From a virus (taxonomy: Duplodnaviria; Heunggongvirae; Uroviricota; Caudoviricetes), in the IMG/VR virus record IMGVR_UViG_3300042691_020576: DNA of 64,000 nucleotides; one strand, written 5' to 3'. The notes below the pieces were generated by a model. It searched no databases. It had not been told where the DNA came from and saw only the letters and a list, made by a program, of their open reading frames with translations. The translations under genes and the position numbers were made by a program. Shown one piece after another: positions 20,221 to 64,000 of this stretch. Each line of letters starts with the position of its first letter. The stretch's first letter is position 1.

Positions 20221-20232
20221 TAGGAATTACAT

Positions 20233-21459: not shown

Positions 21460-21463
21460 GGGA

Positions 21464-22031: not shown

Positions 22032-22032
22032 T

Positions 22033-27196: not shown

Positions 27197-27319
27197 AGTA
27201 AAAAATATTAATGCTATATTATCTGGCAAAAACCTCTATATAGTGTTCTAACTCTTTGCTATTCAATCGCTTTCGTATAGTTTTACTCACAATAAACCAA
27301 TAATTAAAATTAACTACAT

Positions 27320-28609: not shown

Positions 28610-28635
28610 ATTTTTAATAAAAAAAGGATAACAAA

Positions 28636-36537: not shown

Positions 36538-37791
36538 ATGCCTGATAATCAATCCCTTCTTCGCCAACTTGAACAACTTTTGAGTTGGAAGAAGAGTAAA
36601 AAGTTCTATGCAGAAAAGCTAAACATTTCAGAAGATGAGGTTGAAGCTCTGCTGAAAGAACTGAGATCTTCAGAAAATACAAATAAAGATGCTGAAACTG
36701 CAACATACATTGGTGAACTAGAGCAAATAGCCATTAAACATTTCACAGAAGATGTTGCAAAAGGAACGGGAGAGGTTATTTTTCACACAGATGAAGAAAT
36801 CAAGACTCTTGATGAATTAATTCAGAAGTGTAAAATTGATACAGAGAAATGGGAAATTAGCAAATACGTCCAGAATTACTGGGGAAATGCTGAAAAACCA
36901 TATTACCAAGTGAAAGCTTGGTTAACAAAAAAGAAAGACGAACAACTGTTTCAGAACTCCTTCATGGAGTTTTTGACTAGATATAAGCCCGAAGCAAAAG
37001 AGATTTCTCTACCAAGATTTAAACCAGGACATACAGATGCTGCATTGGTGATTAATAAGCAGGATCCTCATTACAACAAGTTGGATGTAAATGGTGAAAA
37101 TGACACGTTTGCTAGATTTTCAACAATTTCATATAAAATAGAACTTATTCTTGAACAAGCTACACTGTCTAACAACTTGGAAAAAATTATCTACATAGTT
37201 GGCTCAGATGAGTTTAACAGTGAGTTTACAGGAACCACTACAAAAGGAACTCCTCAACAGAATACCAAAAGCTATCATGAATCATTTGAAGAGATATGTG
37301 CTCATGAGGTGGCTATGATTGAAATGTTGCTCACCTACTCTAGAAAAGTAGAAATTGTCTATGTTCCTGGTAATCATGATGAGTATGTAGGATGGCACTT
37401 GATAAATTGGTTACAGACATATTTCAGAAACATTGATAGACTGACATTTGATTGTTCTCCAAAATACAGGAAGTATATAAGTTATGGTTTTACAGCAATG
37501 ATGTTTAACCATGGTGATGCAATTAAACCTGCAAAGCTTGCTGGAATATTTCCAATGGAGTTTAAAGAAAGTTGGTCAGATCACGAATTTTTCTATATAT
37601 TCACAGGTGATAAACATCATGAACTGAGTCAAGATTTCAATGGTATCAAGTTCTACCAAGTTCCTGCTTTCTCCACTGCAAAGAGTGGTTGGGACGAAAA
37701 GAATGGCTACACTTGTGCTAAAGGGGAAGTAACAGCTTTCCTTGTTGACAGGTTCTATGGAATGACAAACATATTCAAACAGTATTTATAA
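36538..37791 (+). CDS. calcineurin-like metallophosphoesterase domain protein
   Basis: VYVPGNHDEYVGW (GNH[DE] motif), MFNHGDA and TGDKHHE. Follows a terminator and a short direct repeat; probably starts a new transcription unit. Confidence 0.45.
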   Translation: MPDNQSLLRQLEQLLSWKKSKKFYAEKLNISEDEVEALLKELRSSENTNKDAETATYIGELEQIAIKHFTEDVAKGTGEVIFHTDEEIKTLDELIQKCKIDTEKWEISKYVQNYWGNAEKPYYQVKAWLTKKKDEQLFQNSFMEFLTRYKPEAKEISLPRFKPGHTDAALVINKQDPHYNKLDVNGENDTFARFSTISYKIELILEQATLSNNLEKIIYIVGSDEFNSEFTGTTTKGTPQQNTKSYHESFEEICAHEVAMIEMLLTYSRKVEIVYVPGNHDEYVGWHLINWLQTYFRNIDRLTFDCSPKYRKYISYGFTAMMFNHGDAIKPAKLAGIFPMEFKESWSDHEFFYIFTGDKHHELSQDFNGIKFYQVPAFSTAKSGWDEKNGYTCAKGEVTAFLVDRFYGMTNIFKQYL

Positions 37792-42900: not shown

Positions 42901-44955
42901 GTATTCTTAAATCAGTATGGACAAATCTACTCATACGATACTGTAGATACTGGATTTCAATATCTAATTGGCTCAGGAGGAACAAGTGAACAAGTAGTAT
43001 TTGGTGGTGATACATTCATCAGCAGATTTGCTTTCAAGACAAAGCTTCCATTCTTCATTGACAATAGAGTGAATGCTCCTGATGATAGTGACATATTCTA
43101 TGATGAGATTGGTAACATTGCCTATCCAAAGTATTGGCACTCAGCACGTTCTATTCTGAAAGATTACACAAGTGCTGGTGGTGTGCTTTCAAATATCATT
43201 TCATACAAGGCACACAACTTTGATTGTCCAAATAGTCAAGAGCCTGGTCCAAACTCTGTACCTCCTGTAGCTGCAGATAAGAATCCTAACAGAACATTCT
43301 ATGATGGATATTTCTATCTGTTTGCTTATGGCATTCCTAATTTCTATTGTGAGAGCTCATACAACTTAGACTTACGTCAAGCTTTCAACAATAGAGAGGG
43401 TGACTTCTGGCCACACGTGAGTACAGGTATTCCTGACAACTGGTTACAAGAAAACTTTGTGTCAATTGCTCAGGACAACACTTACTACTATAATACAACA
43501 TTCTCTAAGCAAAACAGAGAAAATACATTTACACACCTTCCAATTGATTGGGACAAACCTTGTTATACATTCTATCCATTCAGAGCAATCTATTCTGATT
43601 CTCAGAATATTGATGCTGACAATAGAGTGAATAGCTGGTTGATTTATAGAGCTGCTTCATATTTTGATTTCCCTCAGAACTATGGAAATCTTATCTCTTT
43701 GGATGGTATTCAGAACAGAGCAGTGTTGGCTAGATTTGAGAATAAGACGTTGATGTACAACAACTTATTGACAATTGACACCAGCAACCCTCAAGCTGCA
43801 TACGTAGGTAATCCGATGTTGTTCAGAGGTGCACCTCCAATTGACTTTGCTGAAACTGATTTGGGATATGTAGGAACTCAAAACAAGATGCTCCTCAAGA
43901 TTCCTCAGGGACAGATAACTATTGATGCTAAGCGTGGTCAAGTGTTCTTGATTAGTGGAACAGATGCGGTTGATTTGTCAGGATTTGGTTCTGGTCTGAA
44001 CAGGTTCTTTACAGATCACTTAGCGTTTGAGATATTGCGCTACTTCCCTAATGTTCCTACAGACAACCATTTCACTGGTGTAGGTTTACATGGTGTATAC
44101 GATTCTAAATATGATCGTGTATTAATTACCAAACTTGATTACATTCCTAAAGTTGACAATATCATATACGATGAAACCGATAGACAGTTTTATCTTGTAA
44201 ATACTGTTAACGGTTTGACTGTCAAGAATTTAGTATATTTGACAGATGAAGAATACTTCTGCAATAAAAGCTGGACTGTTTCTTTCAACTTCAATACAAA
44301 GAGTTGGATAAGCTTCCACACCTACCTACCTAACTGGTATATTGGTGAGAACAACTTCTTCTATTCTGGTGTAAACGGTTGTTGTGAAGATATTGATATA
44401 ATTGTTGGTACAGTTGGACCTATTCCAACCACAACCACAACGACAACTATTGCTCCTCCAACAACCACTACAACTACAACAATTGCTATTGATTGTGATC
44501 TTGATGGTGTAGCAATTGAGACTAATTGTGAATTTTCTGGAACAGCAATTATAACTGTACCTCCTCCTGAGCCTCCTTGCGAAAGACCTTCTGGTTTAAT
44601 TACTGAGGTGTTTTACACAGGATATGATATCACATCTCCACCTTCTAATGTTGTTTCTACAGGAAGTTCAGAAGATGCATGTGATGCAGTGTCCTATCTT
44701 AATGAGAACATTGTTGATGGAGAATATGTAAATGTTATTCCTACTTATCAAGTTATTGAGTATCAAGGGTTGGTATTAGGTTCTGAAGTGTATTTGTCCA
44801 ATGGTTTAAATAATTGTGAGACAATTCCTGACGGATGGTATTTTACAGGAGCTTCCCAAAATAGTGGTGTAGTTTTCCAGGTGGTAAATGGACTAATTAT
44901 GAATATTGTAAATTGTTTTCCTACAACAACTACTACCACTACAATTATCAGTTAA
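39976..44955 (+). CDS. large tail structural protein (1659 aa) with C-terminal poly-Thr linkers
   Basis: Very long beta-rich ORF. The C-terminal region carries PIPTTTTTTTIAPPTTTTTTTIAIDCDLDG and ends FPTTTTTTTIIS. The size fits the large tail 'muzzle' or fiber proteins of crAss-like podoviruses. Confidence 0.55.
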   Translation: MAEQEQGNIRQEYNNATTGLNMDQTVNQIPKGKLTYALNAVVENYDANSVNYQNEPGNELCVTFPSGFVLIGSHFIQEKNKHIFFITNPDDGASQIGYMENNDCVYRVLASAPCLNFNVNYPIHKIAHKITNCTTEIYWTDGYNPRRYMDIENVPKVITPGTSLCDPDYTEELDCNKLKLQPNFKIPELEVVNVSSTGNLEAGTYQFAIQYCDPQGNPYTSYYSVTNPTPIADPAITSVNFNYPVGKSIVLSVKNLEDSGLYQYFNLAVIQTVNAITSVELIGTYYIDSPQKEITYTGQNVSQIRLSINDIFEKFPFYDIAQDLTNVQDVLVWDNLTSIDRINYQSIASKIELMWETWRIPATENYADELNATNLRSYLRDEVYPFEIVFLLRNGKQTDGFHIPGRVKNNSELSQPDVPNTNPDFIGEPDYTSGGIGYSSYWKIYNTGSVTGFSSGYSPAPEYKGPYQYGEFAYWESIETYPCNESVWGDLAGQPIRHHKFPDINISPAYESKLFTTAAGMVMGNDAVFPIGVRIDVQQVASLIETSNLTREQKDDIVGFKIIRGDRGTNKSIVAKGILRNVNTYEREKQTYFYPNYPYNDLNSDPFLNVNNNAWSQLCESYQVVINTLGPDSTAEVQYVDCNTNKQAKIKYTLTGTYNLCSIGKPVVLPPATGGVGVSTYELWTVQVCPGLFPPGARVAWNDIFMGPSERWVDGWPSRPTLTLYVVPGSGAPQKVGGSGDLCINGPVIVTGPDCKAETPQPGFTEKYRQVFNSPETSFGQPFLGNVLKLESVMFGKGKAHFVEVKGNAKYKLLTEEAQRDALDSSNELGNKTTPFNASAMFAAYQAYLTIYINGITRKNYAYSFNSVADYNYGVGVPDNQGVKQRNLDIARYLIPGVQNVNDTYNINNFQRESSVYLRTDLNKPALPFANESPNVIPTGVTDRSRFTISSIGNCDAPAKEEDITVVSYYASIKNVFLNQYGQIYSYDTVDTGFQYLIGSGGTSEQVVFGGDTFISRFAFKTKLPFFIDNRVNAPDDSDIFYDEIGNIAYPKYWHSARSILKDYTSAGGVLSNIISYKAHNFDCPNSQEPGPNSVPPVAADKNPNRTFYDGYFYLFAYGIPNFYCESSYNLDLRQAFNNREGDFWPHVSTGIPDNWLQENFVSIAQDNTYYYNTTFSKQNRENTFTHLPIDWDKPCYTFYPFRAIYSDSQNIDADNRVNSWLIYRAASYFDFPQNYGNLISLDGIQNRAVLARFENKTLMYNNLLTIDTSNPQAAYVGNPMLFRGAPPIDFAETDLGYVGTQNKMLLKIPQGQITIDAKRGQVFLISGTDAVDLSGFGSGLNRFFTDHLAFEILRYFPNVPTDNHFTGVGLHGVYDSKYDRVLITKLDYIPKVDNIIYDETDRQFYLVNTVNGLTVKNLVYLTDEEYFCNKSWTVSFNFNTKSWISFHTYLPNWYIGENNFFYSGVNGCCEDIDIIVGTVGPIPTTTTTTTIAPPTTTTTTTIAIDCDLDGVAIETNCEFSGTAIITVPPPEPPCERPSGLITEVFYTGYDITSPPSNVVSTGSSEDACDAVSYLNENIVDGEYVNVIPTYQVIEYQGLVLGSEVYLSNGLNNCETIPDGWYFTGASQNSGVVFQVVNGLIMNIVNCFPTTTTTTTIIS

Positions 44956-44973: not shown

Positions 44974-45840
44974 ATGTCTAAATCAATTGTCATAAAATTA
45001 ACAAGTTCAGGTCCTAAAGCTGGTCCTTTCACAATCAGTGATGAGTTCAAGAACATCATAGCAACTGATGTTACTAAAGCTCAATTGATTGAAGGGGTGA
45101 GTTATAGTGTTGGCGATAATGTTACAATGGTGACTCTTGAATCTACTGGTAAGTGTAAAGTGAAGAAGACTTTTCCCATCACTGTTACAAATCCAGTAGA
45201 ACTTGCTGCAGCTGAATACAAACAAATCACAACAGCATGTATCTGGAGGCATTTAAAGAACCCAGTGATTTACAATCTGTTTTATAATAACGTAGAGCCA
45301 TATATTATTGAATATCCATTTGTATATCAATACAATGATCAAATTTTACAATCTGTACAGGATTACACTAAAGCCTACAGATACTTTATTGATCCAGACG
45401 GTATCTCAGATGACAATAGAAAGGTGGAAACAGACAACCTCTGGTTCAACAAAGCCATTCTATACAACGGACAGCAGTCTACAGGAGTTTTGGAATTGGT
45501 ACCCAAGCCTATAAACAACCTGAAGGAATATATGAAATATCCTGTATATAAGAATGACTCTAAGGTGATTACGTTCACTAAGAGTGATAACTTCTATCAG
45601 TATAACACTTTCTGGTCATTAGTGAGGAATAAACAGGAACCTTTGTTTGTACGTACATGTGAGAACTTATCTTTGGACAAGGTGGTGAATCAAACAAATA
45701 TGGACTATGGTAAGAGATCTTTCAAGAAGGAACCTCTGAGAGCTAAGGAATTGAAGGTTAGACATATTCTTGACAATCGCTCGGATGTGCATTTGGTTAG
45801 TCAGTTTATTTATACACCAGCTCAAATTTCTTATAAGTAA
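44974..45840 (+). CDS. hypothetical tail protein (288 aa)
   Basis: Plus ORF. Confidence 0.45.
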   Translation: MSKSIVIKLTSSGPKAGPFTISDEFKNIIATDVTKAQLIEGVSYSVGDNVTMVTLESTGKCKVKKTFPITVTNPVELAAAEYKQITTACIWRHLKNPVIYNLFYNNVEPYIIEYPFVYQYNDQILQSVQDYTKAYRYFIDPDGISDDNRKVETDNLWFNKAILYNGQQSTGVLELVPKPINNLKEYMKYPVYKNDSKVITFTKSDNFYQYNTFWSLVRNKQEPLFVRTCENLSLDKVVNQTNMDYGKRSFKKEPLRAKELKVRHILDNRSDVHLVSQFIYTPAQISYK

Positions 45841-50078: not shown

Positions 50079-52694
50079 ATGGCTTCATTTACTGACATTA
50101 TCCCCCAATTTAACCCGTACATCCAGCAGCTTCCTGTGGAGGCTATGGTGTCTGTGGGCATGGAAAAGCAAAGGCGCTATGATGAAGGTCTTCAAAAGAT
50201 TCAAGGTCAAATTGACAGAATTGCTGGTCTTGACATCATTCAGCCTGAGCAGCGAAAGTATCTGCAGTCCAAACTGGATGAGCTTGGTAATAACCTCAAA
50301 ACTGTAGCTGCTGGGGACTTCTCAAACTTCCAATTGGTTAATTCTGTTGGGGACATGGCTAATCAAATTGGAAAAGATTCACGTATTCTGAATGCGGTTT
50401 CATCAACCAAGGCTTATAGAAAAGCTCTGCAAGACAAGGAAACCTACACAAAGGAGGGCAAGTCTTCAGCATCAAACGACTGGGACTTTGCTCAACAGGC
50501 AAATAGCTGGTTGAATGGTGACGTTGATGCTTCATTCAGTGGAACCTACAATCCATATACCAACTACAGAAAGAATGCCCTTGAGGTGATCAAGGCTCTT
50601 ACCAAGAACAAGACTATCACAGAAGACGCTTTTGATTTTGACAAGAATGGTAGAATGATCATCAAGGATGCTATTGTTCGTGAGGAGTTATCTGGTATTT
50701 CCCCTGAGCAAATCCAAGAAGCTCTGATGGCAGGTCTGACTCCTAACGATTGGAAGCAGATTGAGATTGATGGTAGATACAACTATTCAAATGTTCCACC
50801 ATCAGACTTTGTGAAAAGCATAGAGTCTACGTACAAAAATAACGTTGATGCTTTCAATAAGCAACGCACTATTCTTGAGAATGCCAAGAGCTCTACATCA
50901 TCTGCTGTAGAGAAAGCTGCTTTGGATAACAAAATCAAAGCTATTGACAAGGTGTTAGGCAAAATCAATGGTGAGTACGGAAGTATTTCCAAGATGTTTG
51001 CAAGTGGTAACATTGAAGCTGCAAAGGCTCAATTGTTCACAAACAACTTCATGAACACTTTCTCTAACGCATTCTCATTTACAGAAACAACACAGGAATA
51101 TAAATCAAATCCTTTGGCTCAAGCTGAGCAGTGGAGACAAAATAAAGATCAAGAATGGAAAAAGATCATGCTTGATTACAATTTAGGTTTAGCAAATCTC
51201 CAAGTTAGAAAAGAAGAACTGGCTGAAAAGAGAGAAGCTAATCGTATAGCAAGACTTGGTGTTGAAGGATATGGACCAATAGCTGGTCCTGTTGATGCTA
51301 ACACGCTTCCTAAAGTTGCTCTTGATACTGTAGTTGGCCAGACCAATTCGTATCTGCAGGGTGTACAGAAAATGGATAGTGATTTTGCAGCTAGTCAGGG
51401 AAAAGACCAAGCTTGGCTGAATCAACAGAAAGAAGCTTACTTGAAATCTCCTAATGGAGTGGATCCTGTTGTTAAACAACACTTTGACAATACACAAGGT
51501 GCACGAAGATTAGCTGAAGAGAACCAAGTGATGGTTACTCAAATTGCTAGCGAGGCTGATAGAAGATTTGGTACAATTGACAAGTATATTCCTAAGACTG
51601 CTCCAAACTTGACATATAGAGATGGAAAAGGAAATATATACACATACACTCCAACTGAGCTTGTTAACTTCAATTCAAAACTGAAGAACTATAAGCCTGA
51701 AGTGTATAAACCATCTCCTGATAGACCTGGTGCCCCATCACTTTCAACCACCTACGATGATGAGAAGGCTAAAAAGGAACTGAGTCCTAAAGAGTATCTG
51801 TTGTATGAAATATCAAAAGCTGGTACTAAGAACACAGGTGCAAACAAAGTGATTTGGGAAAATCTGAAGAACTATGACAAGAATGTAAATGCTGTGTACG
51901 GAAAAGTGATTGCTGAAAAGAACAACTTCATTGGTGAAGAAGTGAAACGAAGATTGCTTGCTGCTCAAGGTGTTTCTTACAGTATTCCTACAGGAACCAA
52001 AGAACAGAAAGAAAGTCTTGCTGGTATATTTTCTTCAATAGCAGACATGGCTGATAAACAAGGAGGAATTGCTTTATCCCCAGGACTAGACAAGGATGTT
52101 CTTAGAAAACTTGCTGAGAGTGGAGATGTTGAAGCAAATATCACTGTGATAGAGGGTACAGAATTTGCACCTACTATGTACCAAGTTACAGCAAGAGGTA
52201 AAGCTGGCACCACCACTTTTAACCTCACTCCTGAACAAAAGAGACTTGCGTTCCAAGATAGATTTGAACCTTCTCCTGCAGTGAGAGCTTTCAGACCTTA
52301 TCAAGCGATGATGCAAAAGTATAGCAGTCAAGATCCTACCACTGGTACAACAAGCAACTTCTTATCAACCAATCCTACAAAAGGTCCAATCACTTTCCAA
52401 AACTCATCATTAAACTCCACTGATTTTCCAGGTATAAAATCTTATGGAGTTACAGGTGCAGTGATTTCAAACGATGGTGGTAAGACTTATTCTGTAAGGT
52501 TTAATCTATACGATCCTATTACAAGAACATTCCACAATGATATTCCTTATTTCAGAATGCTTAGTGAGGAAGAGGTAGTTCCTGTAATGTCTCAAATCAC
52601 AGATGCTGCTGTGTATGAGCTGTTGAATGACGGTAAAAAAGCTACCAAAGCACAATTAGAATTATTGCAAAGAGCTTCTAAAAAACCATTATAA
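50079..52694 (+). CDS. hypothetical large virion protein (871 aa)
   Basis: Plus ORF. Its stop overlaps the start of the giant ORF (TAATG). Confidence 0.5.
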   Translation: MASFTDIIPQFNPYIQQLPVEAMVSVGMEKQRRYDEGLQKIQGQIDRIAGLDIIQPEQRKYLQSKLDELGNNLKTVAAGDFSNFQLVNSVGDMANQIGKDSRILNAVSSTKAYRKALQDKETYTKEGKSSASNDWDFAQQANSWLNGDVDASFSGTYNPYTNYRKNALEVIKALTKNKTITEDAFDFDKNGRMIIKDAIVREELSGISPEQIQEALMAGLTPNDWKQIEIDGRYNYSNVPPSDFVKSIESTYKNNVDAFNKQRTILENAKSSTSSAVEKAALDNKIKAIDKVLGKINGEYGSISKMFASGNIEAAKAQLFTNNFMNTFSNAFSFTETTQEYKSNPLAQAEQWRQNKDQEWKKIMLDYNLGLANLQVRKEELAEKREANRIARLGVEGYGPIAGPVDANTLPKVALDTVVGQTNSYLQGVQKMDSDFAASQGKDQAWLNQQKEAYLKSPNGVDPVVKQHFDNTQGARRLAEENQVMVTQIASEADRRFGTIDKYIPKTAPNLTYRDGKGNIYTYTPTELVNFNSKLKNYKPEVYKPSPDRPGAPSLSTTYDDEKAKKELSPKEYLLYEISKAGTKNTGANKVIWENLKNYDKNVNAVYGKVIAEKNNFIGEEVKRRLLAAQGVSYSIPTGTKEQKESLAGIFSSIADMADKQGGIALSPGLDKDVLRKLAESGDVEANITVIEGTEFAPTMYQVTARGKAGTTTFNLTPEQKRLAFQDRFEPSPAVRAFRPYQAMMQKYSSQDPTTGTTSNFLSTNPTKGPITFQNSSLNSTDFPGIKSYGVTGAVISNDGGKTYSVRFNLYDPITRTFHNDIPYFRMLSEEEVVPVMSQITDAAVYELLNDGKKATKAQLELLQRASKKPL

Positions 52695-55600
52695 TGGCAG
52701 AAAATCCGCAAACTCCCCTTCTTGATAGAGCTAGTTTAGAAGAGCAATTCACTGGTTATACGCCTCCCGCTGCTCCAGATCCTCTACCCAACATTCCTTT
52801 CAGAGGACTTAACAATCCTATGCCTGGTGGTGTTGCAGGTGATGGAGAATCTGTATCTGCTCTTCAAGCACTTGATGCTTCTGTAAGAAAACCTACAGGT
52901 AAAATGAGGGGTGGTTCCATCATGCGTCCTCTTAGTGAAATGAGTAATCCTAGATATGATTCTTTTGTACCTGGTGATTACAATAACGAAGATGCGTATG
53001 GTCAAGGTCAAGGATGGACTTCAAAAATGGTTAATGGTGTTGGTAAGGGACTCGCTCTTACGGGCACTACTTTCTTGCAGGGTACAGTGGGTTTGGTGAA
53101 CGGTGTAGGTAATTGGATTGCCACTGGTAATTTCAGTTCTTTCTATGATAATCCATTGAATAGAGCTCTGGATGATTTCAATAAAAAGTTGGATGATGAA
53201 CTTCTTCCCAACTACTATACAGATGCTGAAAGCACTGCTGCTTGGTATTCTCCTAAGAACCTCTTCACTGCTAACTTCCTCTGGAATGGTATTGTGAAGA
53301 ACTTAGGTTTTGCTGCTGGTGCTGCATTATCTGGAGGCGTATATGCTTCAGGTATCAAAGCGTTAAGTTCACTCCCTGGTATTGCTAGACTTGTATCACT
53401 TGGTAAGCAAGCTGAAGTGATTGCTGCTACAGAAGCCTCTTTACTGTCTGCTAATAAGGTTGCTGATACATACGGCAAAATCAAATCTCTTTCTGACAGA
53501 TTCCTTTCTTCTTACAAACTTCTCAATCCTGCTCAAAGAGCTGTTGTTGCTGGTTTGGCTACAACAGGTGAAGCTGGATTTGAAGCTTTGCAACATTTGA
53601 ATGAAGAGAGAACCAAGTTGATTGATGAATATATGGCTACCAATAATGGACTCTATCCTACTGGTGCAGCTATGGATGAAATCAACAGAAAGGCTGAACA
53701 GATTGGTGATTCATCCTTCTTAGCTAACGTTGCATTGTTGACAGCAACCAACTATATTCAGTTTCCTAAAATCTTAGGTTCTTCTTTCAAAGCAGAGAAG
53801 GGAATGATTAACTCTCTGCAGAGTGAAACAAAAGAGATTGTTCAAGAAGCTGGTAAGTTCATTGCAAAGCCTGCCGCTGGTGGTAAGATATTGGGAACCC
53901 TCAACAAGATTAGACCGTACACATTCTCTGTATCTGAAGGATTTGAAGAAGGTGCACAGTATGCTATTGGTGTAGGTACCAAAGACTACTTTAACAAGAA
54001 GAATAACAACGAAGCTACAAGCTTCCTTGATAGCCTATCAGAAGGATTCATCAACACATTCACTACCGATGAGGGTATGGAGAATGTGTTAATCGGTAGT
54101 CTGTCTGGTTCTATTATGCAGGCTAGAGGAAGATACAGAGAGCAACGAGAGCGCACTAAGAACACGGCTGAAGCTATTGAGAAGCTGAACAATTATAAAC
54201 TGTCTGATTTCACCAAGGCTACAATTGATTCTGTCAATCGTGGAACTGTTCTTCAACAGGAGAGAGAAGCTCTTTTGAAGAGAGGTGATGTGCTGAACAG
54301 TAAAGACAAGGAAGCAGATTATGTAATCAACTATCTGTCTCCACGTATCAAGTATGGTAGATTTGATCTTGTACAGGCTGACATCAATGACTACAGAGCA
54401 TTGGCTAGTACAGATGAAGGCTTTGCTCAACTTGTAGCTGAAGGTAAAGCTCTTGCTACAGATACAAGAGAAGCTTTCCTTGCACGTGTTGAGAACTTAC
54501 AACAGACTGCAAACAATGTGAAATCATTGTATCAGTCTATCAACTTACGTTATGCTGGTGCAGTGGATGAGAAAGGTAATCCTGCCTATTCACCTGCTGT
54601 AATTGACCAGATGGTATATGCTGCTTCTAAGGTGGCTGATTATGATGTTCGTATTCCTAAACTGAGTCCTAAACTGATTGCTGCTGGTATTAATGTTGAT
54701 CAGGTGGTAAAAGATGTTGTTGAGGGCAAGGTTGAAAGTTTCAACGATGCTGTTAATACCATCAAAGGAATGAAAGACATCACTGTTGATCAACAGGAAG
54801 ATCTTGGTCAAGCTCTGGAAGATGTTGCTGAAATGAGCATTCGTAGAGACAAGTTCCTGAACGAGTATAACGAGATGAAGCAATCTCCTGACAAGTTCAA
54901 GGAAGTCACTCCTGAAGAAGCTCAAGGCCCTGTACCTGCAGTGAAGGAAACTATCAAGGTAAAGGTTCAGAACAGAGAAAAAGAGATTGAGATTGGTACA
55001 GAATATTATATTGGTAAGGGTGTAGACTATGACAAGGATGGATTGGAAGTTCCTATCGAAGTGTCTATGCTCACTGTTCTTGGTGAGAACGCTGATGGTA
55101 CTCTGAGAATCAGAGATAACAAAGGTGTTGAAAGAAATATCTCTAAGGAGAAACTTGAGGATTACAAACTCTTCAAGGCTTCAGACTTGCGTAGTAACAA
55201 GACTGCTAACTATTTCTACAGACACAGAAATGAAGTGTTTGAATACAACTTTGGTAGTGGAAAGAGAACAGGTAGACTTGAATATGATAAGGGTAAGTTG
55301 TTCTTTGTATATAAAAATGACAAGGGTAAGATTGTAAGAAAACTAGTTGATAATCGTCATTTTACTCCTCAAGGAGAATACACAGAACCTCGTATCAGAA
55401 AGGTTGGTGAAATTGAGAATGCAGAACAGAAAACTGCTAGAGAAGAGTTTACATCTGCAGAAGAAATCAAAAGACAAGAGGCAACTCTTGCAAAGAATAA
55501 AGACGCACGTCTTGAAATTATTACAGAGCTCCAGAGAGAATCGTCTGAACGTCTTGATCAAGTGAATAAAAAGCTTGAAAGCAAGAAGAAAGAACTGGAT

Positions 55601-58600
55601 AGTATTCAAAAGGATCTGGATAAGATAGGTGATGAAGTGAGAGTGTCTGAACCTCGTACAAAAAGAGAGAAGGCACTTGAAGCTAAGTATCCTGAAATGA
55701 GCCGTCAGAAAGCTAAGTTTGGTAGAGTGTTCTCAACCACAAGCAAGGCTTTGACAAAACTCTCTCGCATGAGAGAAGCTGTACAGGATGAGATTGCTCA
55801 ACTTGAAGCTGAAAAGAATGAGCTTGAGTTCAACCTTTTATACTTCCAAGACTTTGGACAGAACCTTGATGAGCTTCCAGAAAACTCTGGTGAATTCCTG
55901 AAAGAACTCAAAGACCAAGTTAAGTGGTTGGAGATGTTGGTGAAGGAAACTGGAGATAACATCAACGTACTGGCTAAGCTGAGCAAGACTATTGAACAAG
56001 CTATCAAAGATTTTGCTGACCTGTTGGAAAGCTCTTTGAGCAAGTTTGATGCTGATTATCCTCAGTACATCAAGGATAAGCTGGCTGAAATCAAGGATGG
56101 TACATTTACCATCAAGAATTTTGCTGACCTGAAAGATTATCTGGCAGACTACGCTATGTTGGAAGATCTTCAAAAAGAGATCAGTGTAAACGAGAACAAG
56201 CTGCAAGATGCTGAAGATCAGATAAAGAAGTTGTATCAACAGCTTGATGAACTGGGCAACCAACATAATGCCAAGAAGCAAATTCTTGACAGGTTCCAGT
56301 CTATTGCTGATTCATATCAAGCAAGAAAAGCTGAAGAGGATGCAATCTCTAACAATGAGCAATTAATCAAAGAAGCATTGGGCACTGCTGATACAAGCGT
56401 GCAAACTGCTGAGTTTGATAAAGAATACGAACCTGCAGCTAAGAAAGCTGATGATATTTTACCAAGAGCCACAATTGGTGTGAACAGAGGTAAAGCTCAT
56501 CAGGTGAGAGCTAACAACTTTGGTTTCAATCTGAACAAGTTTGAGAACAGGGATAGGATCCGTGGTGTGTATGTTACATCCAAGAATGAAGATCAAATCG
56601 TTCCAGGATTAACTGACATGCTGAGAATGGATGAAGCAGGTGTAATCAATGAGGACATCAATAAGGATGAGATCATCGCTATGGTGATGGTTGAAGAGGG
56701 TGATGATGGTAAGATCAGAGTGGTTGGTGAAGATGGTGTACCTCTGCCTGATGGTGCAAATCCTCTGGACTTTGCTGTATTCCAGGTGTTCCCTGATGCT
56801 GATTTGAAATGGGGTGCTGAGTTTAACAACGAGAGCATGTTCCGTAAGGACACTCCTCAAGAAGTTAGAGACTCTATCACTGAACAATACAAGGCATGGA
56901 GAAAGTCTGTCCTTGAGAATCCTAGCTTGGATGAAAGACATGAAATCGAAGCGTCGTTTGGTAGAATAGAAAATGTTACAGATGAAACTGGTAAGATTGA
57001 CTATAACACCAGAACATCTGTTGTGGATTCAAATCTTGTAACTGCTGATGATCTTGAGGCATCTCAAGTGATCAATATTCCAAAACTCCCTTCAGGAGAT
57101 GGAAAACTTGCTGTTGAAAGCAAGGGTACAGTATCATTCAGAGTACCTGTAGGTACAGTGTTGTTGGAAACTGCTAATGGTCTGGTTAAACTGCAGAACA
57201 GAAATCTTAGTGAGAAAGAAGCTGAGACAGTGTACAACGCTATTCTGCAAATAGCCAAGAACATGCTCAACCCTGAGATTGGTATAAAGGATCCAAGATC
57301 AGAGCGTCTGTTGAGCTGGTTGAGATCTATTGTGTATTGGGGTATTCCTAAAGACCAAAGTGAGAATAGAAAACCTAGTGCTTACAACAGTGTCTTCTTT
57401 GAGAAAGATGAAGAGACTGGTAAACTGATGTTGTTCATTTCTGGTAAGGGAATGAAGTTCAGATTTACACCAACATCTCTTGAAGAAAACAAAGACATTA
57501 TTGTAAACCTGTTGTCAAATCTGTACAACAACATCAACTCACACAAGTCTAAGTTGCTGAACGAGCCTTACGAAGAGATTCTTTCTATCTCTGAGACTGG
57601 CGAGGTTGAGGGTAGAATGTGGCCAAACTATCAGACTTATCTATTGTCAAACACAACTCCTGATGGTAAGAAAAGAAGCGGTGAAGAACTTCCTCTGTCC
57701 ACTACAGCCAAGCCTGTAGAAGATCCAAATGCTGTGAACAGAACAGCAATCTATTTCTACACTACAGACACAGCTGATGACTTTGTTGTTCCTGTAGTTG
57801 AAAAGAAAAGAACTGTTGTTCCTAAAACTCTTGCTCCTAAAGCTGCTGCACCTGCTGCAAAACCTGCTCCTAAGGCAACAGTTGTTCCAAAAACATATAA
57901 GCTAGACAATAAAACTCGTAACGTATATGTTTCTCCTGAGGGAAACAAGATCATCTTTGTTGCGAGCCCAAATACAAATGATAGCAACTTCTCAACTACA
58001 ATCAAGATTATCAAAGGTGGTGATCTGGATGCTGTAGTTGCTAAGATCAAAGCTGCAGGTATGGATCCTGCTACCGTGTTAAAGAAAAGAATTCTTCAAG
58101 AAATTAAACCACTTCTTCCAAAAGATGAGGATGAGTTTATTATTCCTGAAGATGAAGAAGAAGCACCATCTGTTGCTGAAGAGCAAGCTGAAGATGATGA
58201 AAGCTTTGTTATACTCGAAGAGGATGAAACTGAAGAAGTTATTCCTGAGGATGAAGAAAGTATCATCTTAGATGATGTTGAGAAAACCACTGGTAAGCCT
58301 GTAAGTCAGTCTATCCTGAATGCCATCAATAAGAAGATTGCTGATGATGAAGATGAGCCTCTGCGTGCAGTGCTTAAGCAAGAGTTGGAAAGCTTTGTTC
58401 CTGAAAACTGGAATGAGGTGGAAGCTTGGTTGAACAAGAATTTCCCTAACATTCCTGTATATCGTGTCAAGAACATCATTCAAGCTACCAATGGTAAGCA
58501 AGCTTGGGGTATGTTCAAGGATGGCGCTATTTACATCTATGAGAATGCAGAGGTGGGCACTGCCTACCATGAAGTGTTCCATGCTGTGTGGAGAATGTTC

Positions 58601-61600
58601 TCTACTCCTGAGGAACAACAATCTGTGTTGAAGGAAATGAGAGCTAGAAAGGGCAAATTCTTTGACAGAAGTAGCCTGAAAGATGTTAGCTACTCTGAAG
58701 CTACAGACACACAGCTTGAAGAAAAGCTGGCTGAAGAATTCAGAGACTATGTACAGTTCAAGAAGATTCCTGCAAAACCTGCAAGTGGTAGACCATTTGT
58801 ATTGAAGTTGTTTGCTGATTTAGTGACAGCCATCAAGAAGTTGTTCATGGAACCACAATCAGACTCTAAGGTTGAGGACATGTTCAAGAAAATCAACCAG
58901 GGTGGTTACAAAGCAATCATTCCTTATCAGAGCAACTTGGCTTTTGCTAATCAAGGTGTTATTGATATTGCTAGTGCATTTGCTGATGAGAACACTGCAT
59001 TGAGTCTTGCTGGTATCAATGATAGAGAAAGAAACGAGATCATTCAACACATGACCTACCTCACTCTTGCAAAGATGATCAAGACTGACAAGAGTCTGTT
59101 TGAGGTGGAGAAACAAAATAAGTCAGAGTTGTATGCATCACTTAAGGACGATGTTCTTCAAACAATAGCTAAGAAGATTCGTGTTGCTGAACAGCTTGTA
59201 AAGGATGGATCTTTCACTCAGAAAGAAGCTAATCCTGTAATAGCCACTACTATCCAGTTGATGCAAAGTGTTGAAGATCAATGGGATGTAATTTCTGCAA
59301 GACATCAAGAATATCTCAAGAGCTATCAGATTGAGTTTGATGAGAACGATCAGTTAACTTTACGTGATGAGAACAATAGTGGTAGAGGTGATTATCAAGA
59401 TGCTACCAAGATTGATAACTTCAAGAAAGCTCACAGCGCTATCAAACTGTTGCTAGCAACTATCCCTCAAGTGGATGCTAGTGGTAAAAGAGTTCCATCT
59501 TCTATTGGTGGTTCACAGTTATTGCCTTTGAGCAGAACATACATCACCCTTATGAACAGTCTACATGATGCTTCATCTGTAGAGGAAATGCTTGAGGGAT
59601 TGCGTCAGATTGCTATCAATGATGTAAACTACAGAACTCTGTACAAGAGAATCACCAAGAGAGCTTATAATGAAGCTGGTGTTGATATTTCTACAATTGA
59701 TACAGAACATGGTTTGCAACTGTTGAGTGCGTTCTGGAACACATTTAGAAAGCAGAGTCCTGATGTAAGGAACGTGTTTATTCTTGAGAATGGTGAGGTT
59801 GTAGTGGGTGAAGCAAATCTGTCTACAGCTGCACAAAACCTTAGAAGTCAATTCATTAACTCCATCATATTCAAATCAAAGTCAGGAGATGGCTACTTTA
59901 CATATGATGAGAAAGAGAAAGTGTACAAAGGTGATCCTGCAAAACTGCGTGGTGTTCAACTAGACAAGCCTGAACAGATCGTTGCTTTCCTGAACAAGAT
60001 GGGAATCTCTTTCACTATGAAGGAGGTGAAAAGTCTCACTCCTAGTCAGTACAACAAATTCAGAAGTGCTGCTAGAGGGATCAGAGAAAGTATTGCCAAA
60101 GCTGAAAAGATTGCTACATTCTCAGGAAAGTCTCTTGGAATGAGTGGTCGTTTGCTTGAGATTGCTTTGATAAAAGCTGCTGCAACAAACCCTGAATTCA
60201 GTAGCACATACTTCAACGTTTCTGGTGACCGTACACAGTCCTACATTGGTACAAACGCTGCAAGTGATTTGTATGACTTCTTGTCCAAGCTTACAAAGTT
60301 TGATAAGAACAGTTTGGGTGGTACATCTTACAGCTATCTGCTCACTGATTCTTTTGCAAAGAATTCCAATCTACTGAACAGAATGTTCACAACTGCTGGC
60401 ACACGCAAGCAGGGTAGTGAGGATCTGTTTAAGATAGGCTATGTAAGTGGTACAGTTAATGAAACAAAAGGTAAACGTAAAGAGTCATCTAAGCTCACAT
60501 TCAAAGAACGTCTGATTCAGGAATTGAATCTGAACTTATCAGGTTGGTATTTGAACCTGGTTCCTGGTGATGCATCTATTGAATGGATGATCAATATGGG
60601 CAACCCTATCTCTTTGGAATCTGCTAACAGAGGTATGGCTGAACTCAACTCTATCTTCAAGGGATATTTCTTGTCTGAGCTTGAACTGGCTAGAGAAAAT
60701 CGTCCTGTAGCAAAAGGTAGAAAGGCAAATGAAATGCGCTTCTTCTTAGGCATCCTTGGTGATAAACTCCATTCACAGATAATGAGTGATAAGAGATCTC
60801 CTGAGGAAGTGTACAAAACCTATGAGAAAGACATCAATCGTAGTCTTGAGAAGTTCATTGATGAACAAGTGACTTCTTTCAAAACTACACTGTCTCGCTA
60901 TGGTATTTTGAACCTTAGTGAAACAGGATATACATTTGACAGTGTAAACATTCCTCAAGATCTCAGTGAGAGTCAAGTGAATAGCTATCTGTTTGCCTCT
61001 ACAGCAAACTTCATGATTGCTAACATTGAAATGCATAAGCTTCTGTATTCTGATCCATATCAGTATTCAGATGAACTGAAGCGTATCAAAAACTTCAACT
61101 CTCCACGTCAGGCAATTATCAATAACTCTCCAAAGATGAACACTGCGTTCAACAAAGTTTGGAACAAGGGTTATGAGCGTAACGATATTGGTTATACTAA
61201 TTTCACACAAGATTACTTCCGCACTACAACACTTGCTGATGTTGATGGTGTGATTGATCTTCCTGGTTATGAAGACTTTAAGGAAACTGATGGTAGTGGT
61301 ATCATCACCATGAATGCTTACCGTCAGTTTAGAATCAGAGCTAGTCAATGGAATAGTGATGAAGAACGTCAGTATAGATATGACATTGCTTTTGAAAAGA
61401 AAGACAAGGGCCTCAAGCTTTCTCAAGAGGAAACTAAGTTGTTGAAAGCTGGTAACCCTGGCATCAAGAGTACATACACTCCTTTGAAGCCAATTGTGTC
61501 TGGTAGTAAACTGGCTCAAGATGGTTCTGCTAGCAGCTTCAATAATATCGTATTGGATAAGTTTGCCCTTTATCCATTGTCATATCGCATCATGAAAGAA

Positions 61601-64000
61601 ATCAATGCGGATTCAAATGCAGTGAAACTCTATAACAAGATGCAGAAAGAATCCATTGATTATGTGGTGTTTGCAAGTGGTAGAAAGGTAGGTGCTAGAA
61701 CTCCACATGCTACATACAATGCAGATGGTTCATTCAACGATGCTCCTTATGAAGCAGTGGATAATATACCATTCTCCATCATGAGCATTCAGGCAGAGGT
61801 TCCTTCTAAAGAAGATAGCTATGTGACAAGAGGTAGCCAGATTACAAAACTGATTACTCTTGATTTCATGGAAGCTGGTGTTCCTGTAGACTATCAGGAG
61901 GGTAAATCTTTTGAAGAAAGATACAAAGCTTGGTATGCATTGGATGAAGCTGCTAAACTGAAAGCTTCTGAACTGTACAGAGAAATCAAGAACAACCAAG
62001 ACTTGCTTGGTGCACTTATTGACGAAGGTTACAGATCTACATTGAGCAGACTGGGCATTGCTGAGACTGTTGAAAGAGATGGTAGCAAGAGTTATACAAT
62101 CACAGACTTGTCTAAGGCTGGCCAAACTTTGCGTGATGAAATCTTGAAGAGAGAGGTGAATGATAACATTTCTTCTGCCCTTATTGGTTTCTTGGAAGGC
62201 AAGGTTGTTATTGAAGCAACTCCTGCATATCAGCAAGTTAGAAACATCATCTACTCAATTGCAGACAAAGAGTTCATTTCTCCAAAGATGAATGGTGGTA
62301 TGAAGGTTCAGATTCCTTCTACCTTCCTGGAAAGCAACCGTGTTGCTATGACAGAGATCAATGGTAAGAAAGGATATACATCTGATGTTCTGAAGTTCTA
62401 TGAGAAAGATGGTAAACGTGTAGCTGAAGTGATGATTGGTAGATGGTTTGACAGTGATATGTCTGATGATGAACTGCTTGACTATCTGAACAATACAGAA
62501 GAAGGACAGAAGATTCTGGCTGGTGTAGGTTTTCGTATTCCTACACAGAAACAAAACTCCATTGATGCAATCGTTATCAAGAAGTTCCTTCCTAAGGAAT
62601 TTGGTGATAGTGTTGTAATCCCTGCTGCTTTGGTTGCCAAGGCTGGATCTGACTTTGATATAGATAAACTTTCATTGTATTTGAAGAATGTCTATGTAAA
62701 GAACGGTAAGCCTAAGCTGATTCCATACTTTGGAAAAGGTGAAGAGGCTTTGGCAAAGTTTGAAGAACTGTTTGATAAAGGAGAGTTTTTATCTGATGAA
62801 GAGCTGAAAGAGCTTGATAGATACATTGCTGAGGAGCAAGACAGACTTCAGGACATTGCTGAAGAATCTGCAGGCGGTAAATTGTTAACATCTATCTTTG
62901 AAAAACTTTTCTCTGAAGAAGAAATCACAAGAGATTTTGTAAAAGAAATTCCTGCTAGAGAACAGATTATCAATAAGTTATATAAAAAGAGTTTGGAGAA
63001 TGCGTACATAGAGAGCATGGAGAATCTAATCACTCACCCTGCAAACTATGACAATCTCATCAAGCCTAACTCTGCAGAACCTTTGAAAGAGTTGGCAGAA
63101 TTTATTGCTGAGAAAACCATTGGTCAGACATTTGACTACAAGGATGTAAAGAACATGCTTGATAGAAGCTTCATGTCAAGATTGCGTCATGCGTTTGTAA
63201 GTGGTAAATATGCCATCGGTATTGCTGCTGTTAACCAGACAAACCACTCATTGAACCAACGTCAACCTATCTACATAGATAAGGACAGACTTGCAAATGT
63301 TTCTGATGAGGATAGATTCTGGTTGGGTAATGCTGATATCAAGTTTGAAAAATACAATTCGATTGAGATTGATGGTAAGATGGTGCCCACCCTGTCTATG
63401 ATTAAGAACAAGGCTGGTGAGTTCATCTCTGACATCATTGGTATGTTCATTGATGGATATGTGGATATTTCTAAGGGCCCGTGGATTATGGAACTTGGTG
63501 CAACGCCTAACGTGGCTAGCACATGGTTGTTCTTAATGAAACTGGGTGTTCCTATGAAGACTGTAACATACTTCATGAACCAGCCAATTATTCGTGACTA
63601 TCTGCGTACTATTGAGAACGCTGGTTATTCATGGCTGTTTATTGATCAGTTTGTGGATAGCATGTATGATCTGTACGATCCAGGTTTACCAGGAGAACAA
63701 GTAAAAAGTAGAACAGCTGCATTCAAGATTCCTTCAGAATCAGTGTTGAAAAACAATGTGGGTAAGGATTCTACAAAGATGAGTGCTCAAGAGAAGCTGG
63801 ATCAGTATCTGATGCTCCAAGAGTTCTTGAAGTATGCTAAGATGGCTGAACATATGTTCCATGTCACTCAAGGTTCTAACTATGATACAGCTACATTCAA
63901 TGATCCTTTCTTGATATACAAAAAGCAGATGCAGCAAATCAAAGCACAGAACACCATCGTTAGCTCTGTCGATGATTTGTTAGCAAACTCTTTTGTAGGT
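52694..64000 (+). CDS. giant multidomain protein, partial (>3768 aa); putative virion RNA polymerase polyprotein with zincin-like motif
   Basis: ATG at 52694 overlaps the upstream stop. The frame was verified open at several spot checks and runs to the window end; it is not in the ORF track because it has no stop in the window. Contains AYHEVFHAVW (HExxH, 58568-58582) and the acidic repeat EDEDEFIIPEDEEEAPSVAEEQAEDDESFVILEEDETEEVIPEDEES (about 58126-58260). Contains KAGSDFDIDKLS (62651-62665), which resembles the DxDGD/NADFDGD catalytic motif of DPBB RNA polymerases. Confidence 0.6.
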   Translation, partial: MAENPQTPLLDRASLEEQFTGYTPPAAPDPLPNIPFRGLNNPMPGGVAGDGESVSALQALDASVRKPTGKMRGGSIMRPLSEMSNPRYDSFVPGDYNNEDAYGQGQGWTSKMVNGVGKGLALTGTTFLQGTVGLVNGVGNWIATGNFSSFYDNPLNRALDDFNKKLDDELLPNYYTDAESTAAWYSPKNLFTANFLWNGIVKNLGFAAGAALSGGVYASGIKALSSLPGIARLVSLGKQAEVIAATEASLLSANKVADTYGKIKSLSDRFLSSYKLLNPAQRAVVAGLATTGEAGFEALQHLNEERTKLIDEYMATNNGLYPTGAAMDEINRKAEQIGDSSFLANVALLTATNYIQFPKILGSSFKAEKGMINSLQSETKEIVQEAGKFIAKPAAGGKILGTLNKIRPYTFSVSEGFEEGAQYAIGVGTKDYFNKKNNNEATSFLDSLSEGFINTFTTDEGMENVLIGSLSGSIMQARGRYREQRERTKNTAEAIEKLNNYKLSDFTKATIDSVNRGTVLQQEREALLKRGDVLNSKDKEADYVINYLSPRIKYGRFDLVQADINDYRALASTDEGFAQLVAEGKALATDTREAFLARVENLQQTANNVKSLYQSINLRYAGAVDEKGNPAYSPAVIDQMVYAASKVADYDVRIPKLSPKLIAAGINVDQVVKDVVEGKVESFNDAVNTIKGMKDITVDQQEDLGQALEDVAEMSIRRDKFLNEYNEMKQSPDKFKEVTPEEAQGPVPAVKETIKVKVQNREKEIEIGTEYYIGKGVDYDKDGLEVPIEVSMLTVLGENADGTLRIRDNKGVERNISKEKLEDYKLFKASDLRSNKTANYFYRHRNEVFEYNFGSGKRTGRLEYDKGKLFFVYKNDKGKIVRKLVDNRHFTPQGEYTEPRIRKVGEIENAEQKTAREEFTSAEEIKRQEATLAKNKDARLEIITELQRESSERLDQVNKKLESKKKELDSIQKDLDKIGDEVRVSEPRTKREKALEAKYPEMSRQKAKFGRVFSTTSKALTKLSRMREAVQDEIAQLEAEKNELEFNLLYFQDFGQNLDELPENSGEFLKELKDQVKWLEMLVKETGDNINVLAKLSKTIEQAIKDFADLLESSLSKFDADYPQYIKDKLAEIKDGTFTIKNFADLKDYLADYAMLEDLQKEISVNENKLQDAEDQIKKLYQQLDELGNQHNAKKQILDRFQSIADSYQARKAEEDAISNNEQLIKEALGTADTSVQTAEFDKEYEPAAKKADDILPRATIGVNRGKAHQVRANNFGFNLNKFENRDRIRGVYVTSKNEDQIVPGLTDMLRMDEAGVINEDINKDEIIAMVMVEEGDDGKIRVVGEDGVPLPDGANPLDFAVFQVFPDADLKWGAEFNNESMFRKDTPQEVRDSITEQYKAWRKSVLENPSLDERHEIEASFGRIENVTDETGKIDYNTRTSVVDSNLVTADDLEASQVINIPKLPSGDGKLAVESKGTVSFRVPVGTVLLETANGLVKLQNRNLSEKEAETVYNAILQIAKNMLNPEIGIKDPRSERLLSWLRSIVYWGIPKDQSENRKPSAYNSVFFEKDEETGKLMLFISGKGMKFRFTPTSLEENKDIIVNLLSNLYNNINSHKSKLLNEPYEEILSISETGEVEGRMWPNYQTYLLSNTTPDGKKRSGEELPLSTTAKPVEDPNAVNRTAIYFYTTDTADDFVVPVVEKKRTVVPKTLAPKAAAPAAKPAPKATVVPKTYKLDNKTRNVYVSPEGNKIIFVASPNTNDSNFSTTIKIIKGGDLDAVVAKIKAAGMDPATVLKKRILQEIKPLLPKDEDEFIIPEDEEEAPSVAEEQAEDDESFVILEEDETEEVIPEDEESIILDDVEKTTGKPVSQSILNAINKKIADDEDEPLRAVLKQELESFVPENWNEVEAWLNKNFPNIPVYRVKNIIQATNGKQAWGMFKDGAIYIYENAEVGTAYHEVFHAVWRMFSTPEEQQSVLKEMRARKGKFFDRSSLKDVSYSEATDTQLEEKLAEEFRDYVQFKKIPAKPASGRPFVLKLFADLVTAIKKLFMEPQSDSKVEDMFKKINQGGYKAIIPYQSNLAFANQGVIDIASAFADENTALSLAGINDRERNEIIQHMTYLTLAKMIKTDKSLFEVEKQNKSELYASLKDDVLQTIAKKIRVAEQLVKDGSFTQKEANPVIATTIQLMQSVEDQWDVISARHQEYLKSYQIEFDENDQLTLRDENNSGRGDYQDATKIDNFKKAHSAIKLLLATIPQVDASGKRVPSSIGGSQLLPLSRTYITLMNSLHDASSVEEMLEGLRQIAINDVNYRTLYKRITKRAYNEAGVDISTIDTEHGLQLLSAFWNTFRKQSPDVRNVFILENGEVVVGEANLSTAAQNLRSQFINSIIFKSKSGDGYFTYDEKEKVYKGDPAKLRGVQLDKPEQIVAFLNKMGISFTMKEVKSLTPSQYNKFRSAARGIRESIAKAEKIATFSGKSLGMSGRLLEIALIKAAATNPEFSSTYFNVSGDRTQSYIGTNAASDLYDFLSKLTKFDKNSLGGTSYSYLLTDSFAKNSNLLNRMFTTAGTRKQGSEDLFKIGYVSGTVNETKGKRKESSKLTFKERLIQELNLNLSGWYLNLVPGDASIEWMINMGNPISLESANRGMAELNSIFKGYFLSELELARENRPVAKGRKANEMRFFLGILGDKLHSQIMSDKRSPEEVYKTYEKDINRSLEKFIDEQVTSFKTTLSRYGILNLSETGYTFDSVNIPQDLSESQVNSYLFASTANFMIANIEMHKLLYSDPYQYSDELKRIKNFNSPRQAIINNSPKMNTAFNKVWNKGYERNDIGYTNFTQDYFRTTTLADVDGVIDLPGYEDFKETDGSGIITMNAYRQFRIRASQWNSDEERQYRYDIAFEKKDKGLKLSQEETKLLKAGNPGIKSTYTPLKPIVSGSKLAQDGSASSFNNIVLDKFALYPLSYRIMKEINADSNAVKLYNKMQKESIDYVVFASGRKVGARTPHATYNADGSFNDAPYEAVDNIPFSIMSIQAEVPSKEDSYVTRGSQITKLITLDFMEAGVPVDYQEGKSFEERYKAWYALDEAAKLKASELYREIKNNQDLLGALIDEGYRSTLSRLGIAETVERDGSKSYTITDLSKAGQTLRDEILKREVNDNISSALIGFLEGKVVIEATPAYQQVRNIIYSIADKEFISPKMNGGMKVQIPSTFLESNRVAMTEINGKKGYTSDVLKFYEKDGKRVAEVMIGRWFDSDMSDDELLDYLNNTEEGQKILAGVGFRIPTQKQNSIDAIVIKKFLPKEFGDSVVIPAALVAKAGSDFDIDKLSLYLKNVYVKNGKPKLIPYFGKGEEALAKFEELFDKGEFLSDEELKELDRYIAEEQDRLQDIAEESAGGKLLTSIFEKLFSEEEITRDFVKEIPAREQIINKLYKKSLENAYIESMENLITHPANYDNLIKPNSAEPLKELAEFIAEKTIGQTFDYKDVKNMLDRSFMSRLRHAFVSGKYAIGIAAVNQTNHSLNQRQPIYIDKDRLANVSDEDRFWLGNADIKFEKYNSIEIDGKMVPTLSMIKNKAGEFISDIIGMFIDGYVDISKGPWIMELGATPNVASTWLFLMKLGVPMKTVTYFMNQPIIRDYLRTIENAGYSWLFIDQFVDSMYDLYDPGLPGEQVKSRTAAFKIPSESVLKNNVGKDSTKMSAQEKLDQYLMLQEFLKYAKMAEHMFHVTQGSNYDTATFNDPFLIYKKQMQQIKAQNTIVSSVDDLLANSFVG

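Follow-up and report, generated by a model that had tools for sequence, protein, structure and literature searches.

An open reading frame (ORF) that begins at position 52694 on the forward strand of IMG/VR virus record IMGVR_UViG_3300042691_020576, and that is still open at the end of the 64,000-nucleotide stretch analysed here (the window), appears from its sequence to be the 5′ 88% of one crAss-like phage gene of about 4,250–4,350 codons. The encoded protein is very probably a virion-packaged fusion of counterparts of gp67 and gp66 of phage phi14:2, the latter an RNA polymerase (RNAP). Both the giant fusion and the RNAP assignment are already known in kind. The one fresh element is the HExx[H/E]...E module with which the polymerase begins, strictly conserved across a very large environmental clade. 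As a whole, the observations are best explained by a single virion-packaged gp67–gp66 fusion that carries a metal-hydrolase module, an account that we consider likely.

The giant ORF and its two moieties

The frame that opens at 52694 (+) runs to 64000 through 3,769 codons with zero stops, and its gene is incomplete at the 3′ end; the remaining two forward frames over the same interval hold 186 and 508 stops. An earlier annotation of the window (the sequence-only reading) had reported an ORF of more than 3,768 amino acids (aa) that lacks a stop in the window and is missing from the mechanical ORF list. Both statements hold, and the ORF is missing because ORFs running off the window are not listed. 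The reported start overlap is also present: the TAA stop of the preceding 871-aa gene (50079..52694, +) overlaps the ATG of the giant ORF in the sequence TAATG. Three complete relatives of 4,256, 4,275 and 4,326 aa extend 472–582 residues past the equivalent of the window end, and from these the remainder of the giant ORF is predicted to be roughly 470–580 codons. The final 60 nucleotides (nt) of the window have no exact match in IMG/VR. Searched as a whole, the giant ORF has no match in Pfam, and its sole match in PHROGs is a function-unknown family at the N-terminus.

The virion RNAP of crAss-like phages is a well-studied two-barrel polymerase related to the eukaryotic RNA-interference polymerases. 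The sequence-only reading had proposed an HHpred or HMMER search against PDB, gp66 in particular. In a plain sequence search, phmmer matched the giant ORF to a single entry among all PDB chains, 6VR4 (phi14:2 gp66; E = 1.9e-17), and blastp against gp66 gave E = 1.3e-27. A family profile built from 35 members of the RNAP family matches gp66 residues 143–1748 with E = 1.7e-43, and identity to gp66 is 20.3% across 1,427 matched columns. The alignable region (59159..63892, +) comprises aa 2156–3733 of the giant ORF and residues 142–1748 of gp66. By homology, the giant ORF from about aa 2156 onward is the predicted counterpart of the two-barrel, DNA-dependent RNAP of phi14:2, and a two-barrel fold is predicted for this region from its homology to a solved structure.

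The alignment spans the region of both barrels, the connector, the bridge helix and the trigger loop. We placed these gp66 landmarks on the giant ORF through the family profile, using the element definitions of the phi14:2 paper. The equivalent of the cleft-blocking domain (gp66 196–233) maps to 59327..59431 (+; aa 2212–2246) and falls in a family-conserved FDEND...KIDxFKKA block. Further downstream are the equivalents of the inter-barrel connector (gp66 1095–1238; 61775..62305, +; aa 3028–3204), the bridge helix (gp66 1529–1559; 63161..63289, +; aa 3490–3532) and the trigger loop (gp66 1598–1636; 63422..63538, +; aa 3577–3615). In phi14:2, the cleft-blocking domain of gp66 plugs the RNA–DNA cleft and keeps DFDID in an inactive conformation (phi14:2 preprint).

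The sequence GSDFDIDK lies where it had been reported, about 3,320 aa into the protein, with DFDID at aa 3320–3324 (62651..62665, +). This motif had been likened to the Mg-binding aspartate triad of double-psi beta-barrel RNAPs, and it aligns residue for residue with the catalytic motif of the solved gp66 structure (1361-DFDID-1365). Work on phi14:2 has experimentally proven gp66 to be an RNAP and has found each DFDID aspartate to be essential for RNA synthesis. Motifs of the form DFD[IVG]D arise in 0.9% of 20,000 shuffled versions of the giant ORF. A HExxH motif, of which the giant ORF has one, appears in 1.0% of such shuffles; the sequence contains only 22 His, and the expected HExxH count is 0.011. 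The probability that HExxH and DFDID arose by chance is low. Both motifs are kept in relatives, and DFD[I/V]D is present in nearly all family members.

Genomic position also agrees with the phi14:2 system. The genes 5′ of the giant ORF encode a terminase large subunit, portal, major head protein, tail and virion structural proteins. Their annotations mark this block as a crAss-like structural module with the giant ORF at its end, as the gp66 gene is in phi14:2. The proposal of a crAss-like virion-cargo RNAP is therefore borne out by direct gp66 homology and by a giant ORF that closes a terminase–portal–capsid–tail module. In phi14:2, gp65, gp66 and gp67 are virion proteins by mass spectrometry, and gp66, ejected along with the DNA, carries out early-gene transcription. 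The likeness to gp66 comprises significant homology over about 1,600 residues, an identical aligned DFDID and equivalents of all four mapped elements. The differences are that gp66 is a separate protein of 2,180 aa, whereas the RNAP here carries 1,704 gp67-like aa fused in front of it, and that gp66 residues 1–142 have no match to the HExx[H/E] module.

The sequence-only reading did not recognize the identity of these first 1,704 aa (52694..57805, +). By blastp, aa 52–485 match phi14:2 gp67 residues 17–409 (E = 1e-10), and a family profile of the moiety matches gp67 with E = 3.6e-9. The gp67 gene sits immediately upstream of gp66 in phi14:2, and from these matches the putative 'polyprotein' is a fusion of two neighbouring genes, one gp67-like and the other gp66-like. 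Over aa 5–1704 there is 41% identity to a 1,751-aa ORF in a related scaffold (L009; ENA ERZ28603348 scaffold_36). A widely conserved part is an N-terminal domain (52952..54889, +; aa ~87–732; PHROG 32390, E = 9.3e-24), which includes a Gly-rich uncharged stretch at aa 119–151. Using tblastn, the conserved aa ~90–730 were found in 52 phage records, where the proteins are labelled 'putative RNA-polymerase subunit' or 'structural protein'. The giant ORF is thus homologous to gp67 and to these cultured crAss-like phage proteins over this N-terminal portion, but gp67 is a separate protein in phi14:2, whereas the corresponding sequence here forms the N-terminal end of the chain that includes the RNAP.

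The cyanophage Lbo-JY46 of Leptolyngbya (PP438436.1), whose terminase (41% identity) makes it the closest phage in culture, encodes a separate 1,552-aa homolog of the gp67-like moiety (profile E = 1.1e-40). In that genome, the gp67-like gene adjoins a gp65-like gene for 2,748 aa (together 15782–28688; both labelled 'hypothetical protein'). The gp65-like neighbour matches neither the RNAP nor the module profile, and no match to either profile lies between the two genes. Because the moiety is encoded separately in this phage, beside a gene with no RNAP match, it may be a general virion or ejection protein rather than an obligate polymerase subunit. In L009 and Lbo-JY46, too, a homolog of the 871-aa gene is found on the upstream side of the giant gene.

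The HExx[H/E]...E module

The module (58346..58903, +; aa 1885–2070) stands at the head of the RNAP moiety. An exhaustive profile search matched it to 1,573 representative clusters (E <= 0.001), and its clade, environmental sequences of crAss-like phages, exceeds 1,500 clusters at 50% identity. When a word-indexed database was searched with the module profile, all matches were fragments of this family, and none showed a new architecture. In unfused family members the module lies at residues ~100–650 of proteins of 2,400–2,750 aa. Among 105 fetched proteins that bear both motifs (HExx[H/E] and DFD[I/V]D), all 105 have 1,326–1,475 residues between HExx[H/E] and DFDID. As judged from this arrangement, the module belongs to the RNAP moiety.

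The HExxH motif that had been placed about 1,960 aa into the protein occurs once, as HEVFH in the context AYHEVFHAVW (58568..58582, +; aa 1959–1963). We compared about 168 module sequences, most of them from clusters at <=50% identity. Neither H1959 nor E1960 varies (168/168), and position 1963 is E in 113 sequences and H in 55, with no other residue. E2010 (58721..58723, +), 51 residues after H1959, is invariant in 169/169 sequences and is a candidate third metal ligand; it lies in a conserved KExLAEEF helix (helix 121–138 of the structural model described below). Glu and His can both bind metal, and exchanging one for the other takes two nucleotide changes. Because H1959, E1960 and E2010 are strictly conserved and position 1963 is limited to two metal-binding residues, the pattern argues for a real, selected metal site that has a catalytic Glu beside it.

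The sequence-only reading took this motif as the signature of a zincin protease. The part of that claim that stands is the conserved metal-type site, with its invariant H, E and E; the part that is doubtful is the protease assignment, for which there is neither a peptidase family match nor a zincin fold in the model. A first AlphaFold2 (AF2) model (aa 1900–2320, 15 sequences) had a mean predicted local distance difference test score (pLDDT) of 56 and was not used for fold searches. A second model, from a 41-sequence alignment (A3), reached pLDDT 83.2 with a predicted template modelling score (pTM) of 0.76. It is almost entirely helical, and no beta-sheet is predicted ahead of the motif helix. 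Zincins among the weak structural matches come mostly from one zincin subgroup, whose ligand spacing resembles that of the module. The model and the searches described next make a weak case for a zincin fold.

Several further results weigh against the account of the giant ORF as a fusion with a metal-hydrolase module. In Pfam, 41 diverse module sequences match no zincin family at E < 1, and in NCBIfam the same 41 yield a single match of E = 0.019, far below the cutoff; other peptidase families in these two databases do not match them either. Sequence searches of PDB with two module alignments (A1 and A2) returned only a chance match and designed helical proteins. Foldseek comparison of the model with PDB and BFVD gave nothing at E <= 0.001; the faint BFVD matches are to an ART-PolyVal-like protein (E = 1.0) and a SprT-like protein (E = 2.6). 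For MPTase-PolyVal and SprT-like domains, there is no Pfam match to the module, and BFVD matches appear only at E = 1.0–2.6. In 67% of the family, Glu stands in place of the second His of the motif. To our knowledge, HExxE is not a known zincin signature. Moreover, gp66 of phi14:2 acts as an RNAP in vitro without a HExxH module. Finally, the 3′ end of the giant ORF lies beyond the window, so that the end of the gene is placed from relatives.

The mechanism that we propose extends what is established for phi14:2. The giant protein would be packed into the capsid late in infection and then ejected into the host, where its RNAP moiety would make early transcripts. The module would bind a metal through H1959, residue 1963 (His here but Glu in most of its relatives) and E2010, and E1960 would serve as the general base. 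The module could then act as a built-in hydrolase, most likely cleaving its own chain. Such self-cleavage would release the RNAP from the gp67-like part, or cut away the cleft-blocking segment that lies some 150 residues farther downstream, or do both. Cleavage of such fusions, with possible removal of the cleft-blocking domain, has been proposed in the literature (phi14:2 preprint). Autoprocessing of the fusion, as the sequence-only reading suggested, is plausible; as predicted from the sequence, self-processing by a metal-dependent hydrolase module is possible but on balance doubtful. A more specific version, in which the module represents a new, mostly helical metallohydrolase family, remotely or convergently zincin-like, that cleaves itself after ejection to activate the RNAP, is unlikely. 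If true, however, the module would be the missing activation switch of a packaged, cleft-blocked polymerase. Lying just upstream of the cleft-blocking segment, the conserved module is a mutable candidate (H1959, E1960 and E2010) for the RNAP activation step.

The strongest competing explanation, to which we give somewhat less than an even chance, is that the module serves the RNAP as a helical domain with a structural or regulatory role, binding a metal or another ligand, and that the fusion works uncut. In this picture, the gp67-like part would tether the polymerase to the ejection apparatus. The all-helical model without a zincin beta-sheet, the lack of any significant peptidase family or fold match, and the Glu in 113 of 168 members all favour this explanation. 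In contrast, a His-Glu pair and a distal Glu, all of them invariant, form the classic catalytic arrangement, and a purely structural site needs no Glu beside the first His, yet E1960 is kept throughout. The concentration of weak zincin matches in one subgroup also speaks against a non-protease role.

Coliphage N4 offers an unrelated parallel, as its polymerase is of the T7-like single-subunit type. Its virion RNAP, gp50, is likewise giant (~3,500 aa), ejected and flanked by non-polymerase domains, one of which has a conserved HExxH according to the passages of the N4 literature consulted. Those passages report no protease activity for this subdomain and note that HExxH also occurs in non-protease enzymes, which lends further weight to a structural or regulatory role. 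The two systems differ in that the N4 HExxH is described there as C-terminal to the polymerase, and no similarity to gp50 was detected.

Distinctly less probable is an active metal hydrolase directed at host targets, either peptidoglycan peptides during envelope crossing or an intracellular host protein. The phi14:2 paper suggests, as another possible role, that the zincin-like domain of gp65 digests peptidoglycan. The linker region upstream of the module also takes other effector-type insertions (a NADAR-like segment in L009, sub-threshold at E = 0.0058), and the faint ART-PolyVal-like and SprT-like matches would fit an effector of this kind. However, the position of the module and its distance to the RNAP core are fixed in every member, which suggests a role tied to the polymerase, and there is no similarity to known cell-wall peptidases in Pfam or NCBIfam.

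The phi14:2 paper, citing earlier work, states that gp65 and its orthologs carry a zincin-like HExxH domain, proposed as an RNAP activator. The resemblance to the module is that a HExxH domain occurs in one of three co-packaged giant proteins; the difference is that in phi14:2 it belongs to another protein, downstream of the RNAP. We considered whether the module is the gp65 zincin of the literature and rejected this identification, with a module hidden Markov model (HMM) giving E = 11 against the gp65 HExxH region and hhalign a probability of 0.9%. A large-database search with the gp65 HExxH region found no homologs, and the gp65-like ORFs of the giant-ORF relatives contain no HExxH. Gluzincins of the lethal-factor/MtfA type (anthrax lethal factor, MtfA and Pro-Pro endopeptidases) also differ from the module: they have no sequence-profile match to it, no upstream beta-sheet appears in its model, and in its family Glu usually replaces the second His. 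The literature searched, a set from which the key 2018 paper (Yutin) was absent, contains no description of the HExx[H/E]...E module.

As a separate observation, 9 of the 41 module sequences show weak matches to phrog_1365 (best E = 6.5e-4), which fall at window 58346–58963 and cover the motif region. This 127-position phage family has no known function and may be a stand-alone relative of the module.

The fusion joint and its conservation

The two moieties are joined by a Pro/Ala/Lys-rich linker (57809..57892, +; aa 1706–1733) that contains a 15-nt near-repeat at 57811–57841. Homology to the first ORF of L009 stops at aa 1704, just before the linker. A small domain follows the joint, and an acidic block separates this domain from the HExx[H/E]...E module. 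The sequence-only reading described the acidic region as a repeat block. An acidic low-complexity block is indeed present (58124..58276, +; aa ~1811–1861), with more than 40% Asp plus Glu in 40-aa windows, but its repeats amount to loose peptide quasi-repeats, and Tandem Repeats Finder detected no DNA tandem repeat in it.

Relatives of the giant ORF in IMG/VR share 52–78% identity with it, and three of them have a complete, uninterrupted gene. In each of these three, the giant gene is followed by an ORF of 1,694–2,186 aa that resembles cr108_52 and, weakly, gp65; the corresponding position here would fall beyond 64000. Among the 105 family representatives, the N-terminal extension reaches at least 1,400 aa in 94, and just 4 appear unfused. 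On these counts, fusion appears to be the usual state in the clade, and the giant ORF, at ~20% identity to gp66, adds a divergent RNAP member to a clade that has the gp67-like fusion as its rule. According to the phi14:2 paper, too, some crAss-like phages carry these proteins as one huge fused polyprotein that is probably cleaved.

An assembly or sequencing artefact that merged separate gp67-like and RNAP genes through a lost stop or a compensating indel might be suspected from the separate genes of phi14:2, the few unfused family members and a frame break near the joint in L009, but it is extremely improbable and essentially excluded by three independent relatives with uninterrupted ORFs of 4,256–4,326 aa, by the 94 fused representatives, by the many stops in the other frames of this stretch and by the nature of the L009 break itself, which falls at an A-run with continuous homology.

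That scaffold was evaluated as an unfused example and rejected as such. At about 8636–8900 in L009, the frame changes at an A-run, CCTAAAATATG, between the 1,751-aa gene and the RNAP gene; the two frames join there, and homology runs on in the new frame. A fused gene with an indel is the more likely interpretation of this sequence. The L009 linker also holds, before its HExxE module, an inserted NADAR-like segment (Pfam E = 0.0058, sub-threshold).

A crAssphage with a comparable arrangement is cr108_1 (Steigviridae, Pipoluvirus), in which a YHESFH module (E = 2.7e-23) heads the RNAP moiety of gp054 plus gp053 and a long N-terminal extension precedes it. The RNAP family profile matches the cr108_1 polymerase from end to end across two exons (E = 2.8e-106 and 5.4e-50). 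Unlike the giant ORF, cr108_1 has a 1,457-aa extension that is not detectably similar to the one described here, and a group I intron inside the catalytic motif interrupts its RNAP gene. In the database record (NC_055878.1), the RNAP is annotated as two coding sequences split within the catalytic motif at 18427–18745 ('...AKAGSD*' / 'LYDIDKMY...'), and the gap between them corresponds to an intron of group I (RF00028, 80 bits, E = 9.6e-21) that the record leaves unannotated.

A more divergent lineage (ENA ERZ2485795 contig_7001, 1695–8120) has a HESFH module called as a separate 316-aa ORF, followed by overlapping ORFs of 1,068 and 761 aa, the last of which holds DFD[IV]D. This arrangement could reflect either a split RNAP or frameshifts. 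In one relative (L005), the gp65-like ORF downstream of the giant gene (13209–18482) has sub-threshold matches at its N-terminus to GNAT acetyltransferases (Pfam E = 0.0014–0.003). This region aligns with the N-terminus of the 2,748-aa Lbo-JY46 protein (20442–28688), which has a GNAT-like 'YRGKGVG'.

Other features of the window

Four features elsewhere in the window merit brief description. Two neighbouring ORFs of 1,659 aa (39976–44955, +) and 288 aa (44974–45840, +) match the start and end of phrog_15100, respectively, as well as consecutive parts of one 1,654-aa Lbo-JY46 protein. These two ORFs may be parts of a single gene, split or interrupted here. A gene of the DNA-repair exonuclease type (36538–37791, +; phrog_704, E = 6.7e-50) lies amid the structural gene block.

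On the reverse strand, a 99-nt tRNA-like element at 9804–9902 matches RF00005 (36.1 bits, E = 0.00069) but receives no call from ARAGORN; one possibility is a tRNA that carries an insertion or has an arm of unusual length. A full-length transfer-messenger RNA (tmRNA) gene is located at 11372–11774 (−), where Rfam RF00023 matches over model positions 1–374 (78.5 bits, E = 8.8e-29). ARAGORN predicts its tag peptide as AKTRSQRVAEGEAILASIFQTEAVAA, and a phage-encoded tmRNA with so long a tag is unusual.

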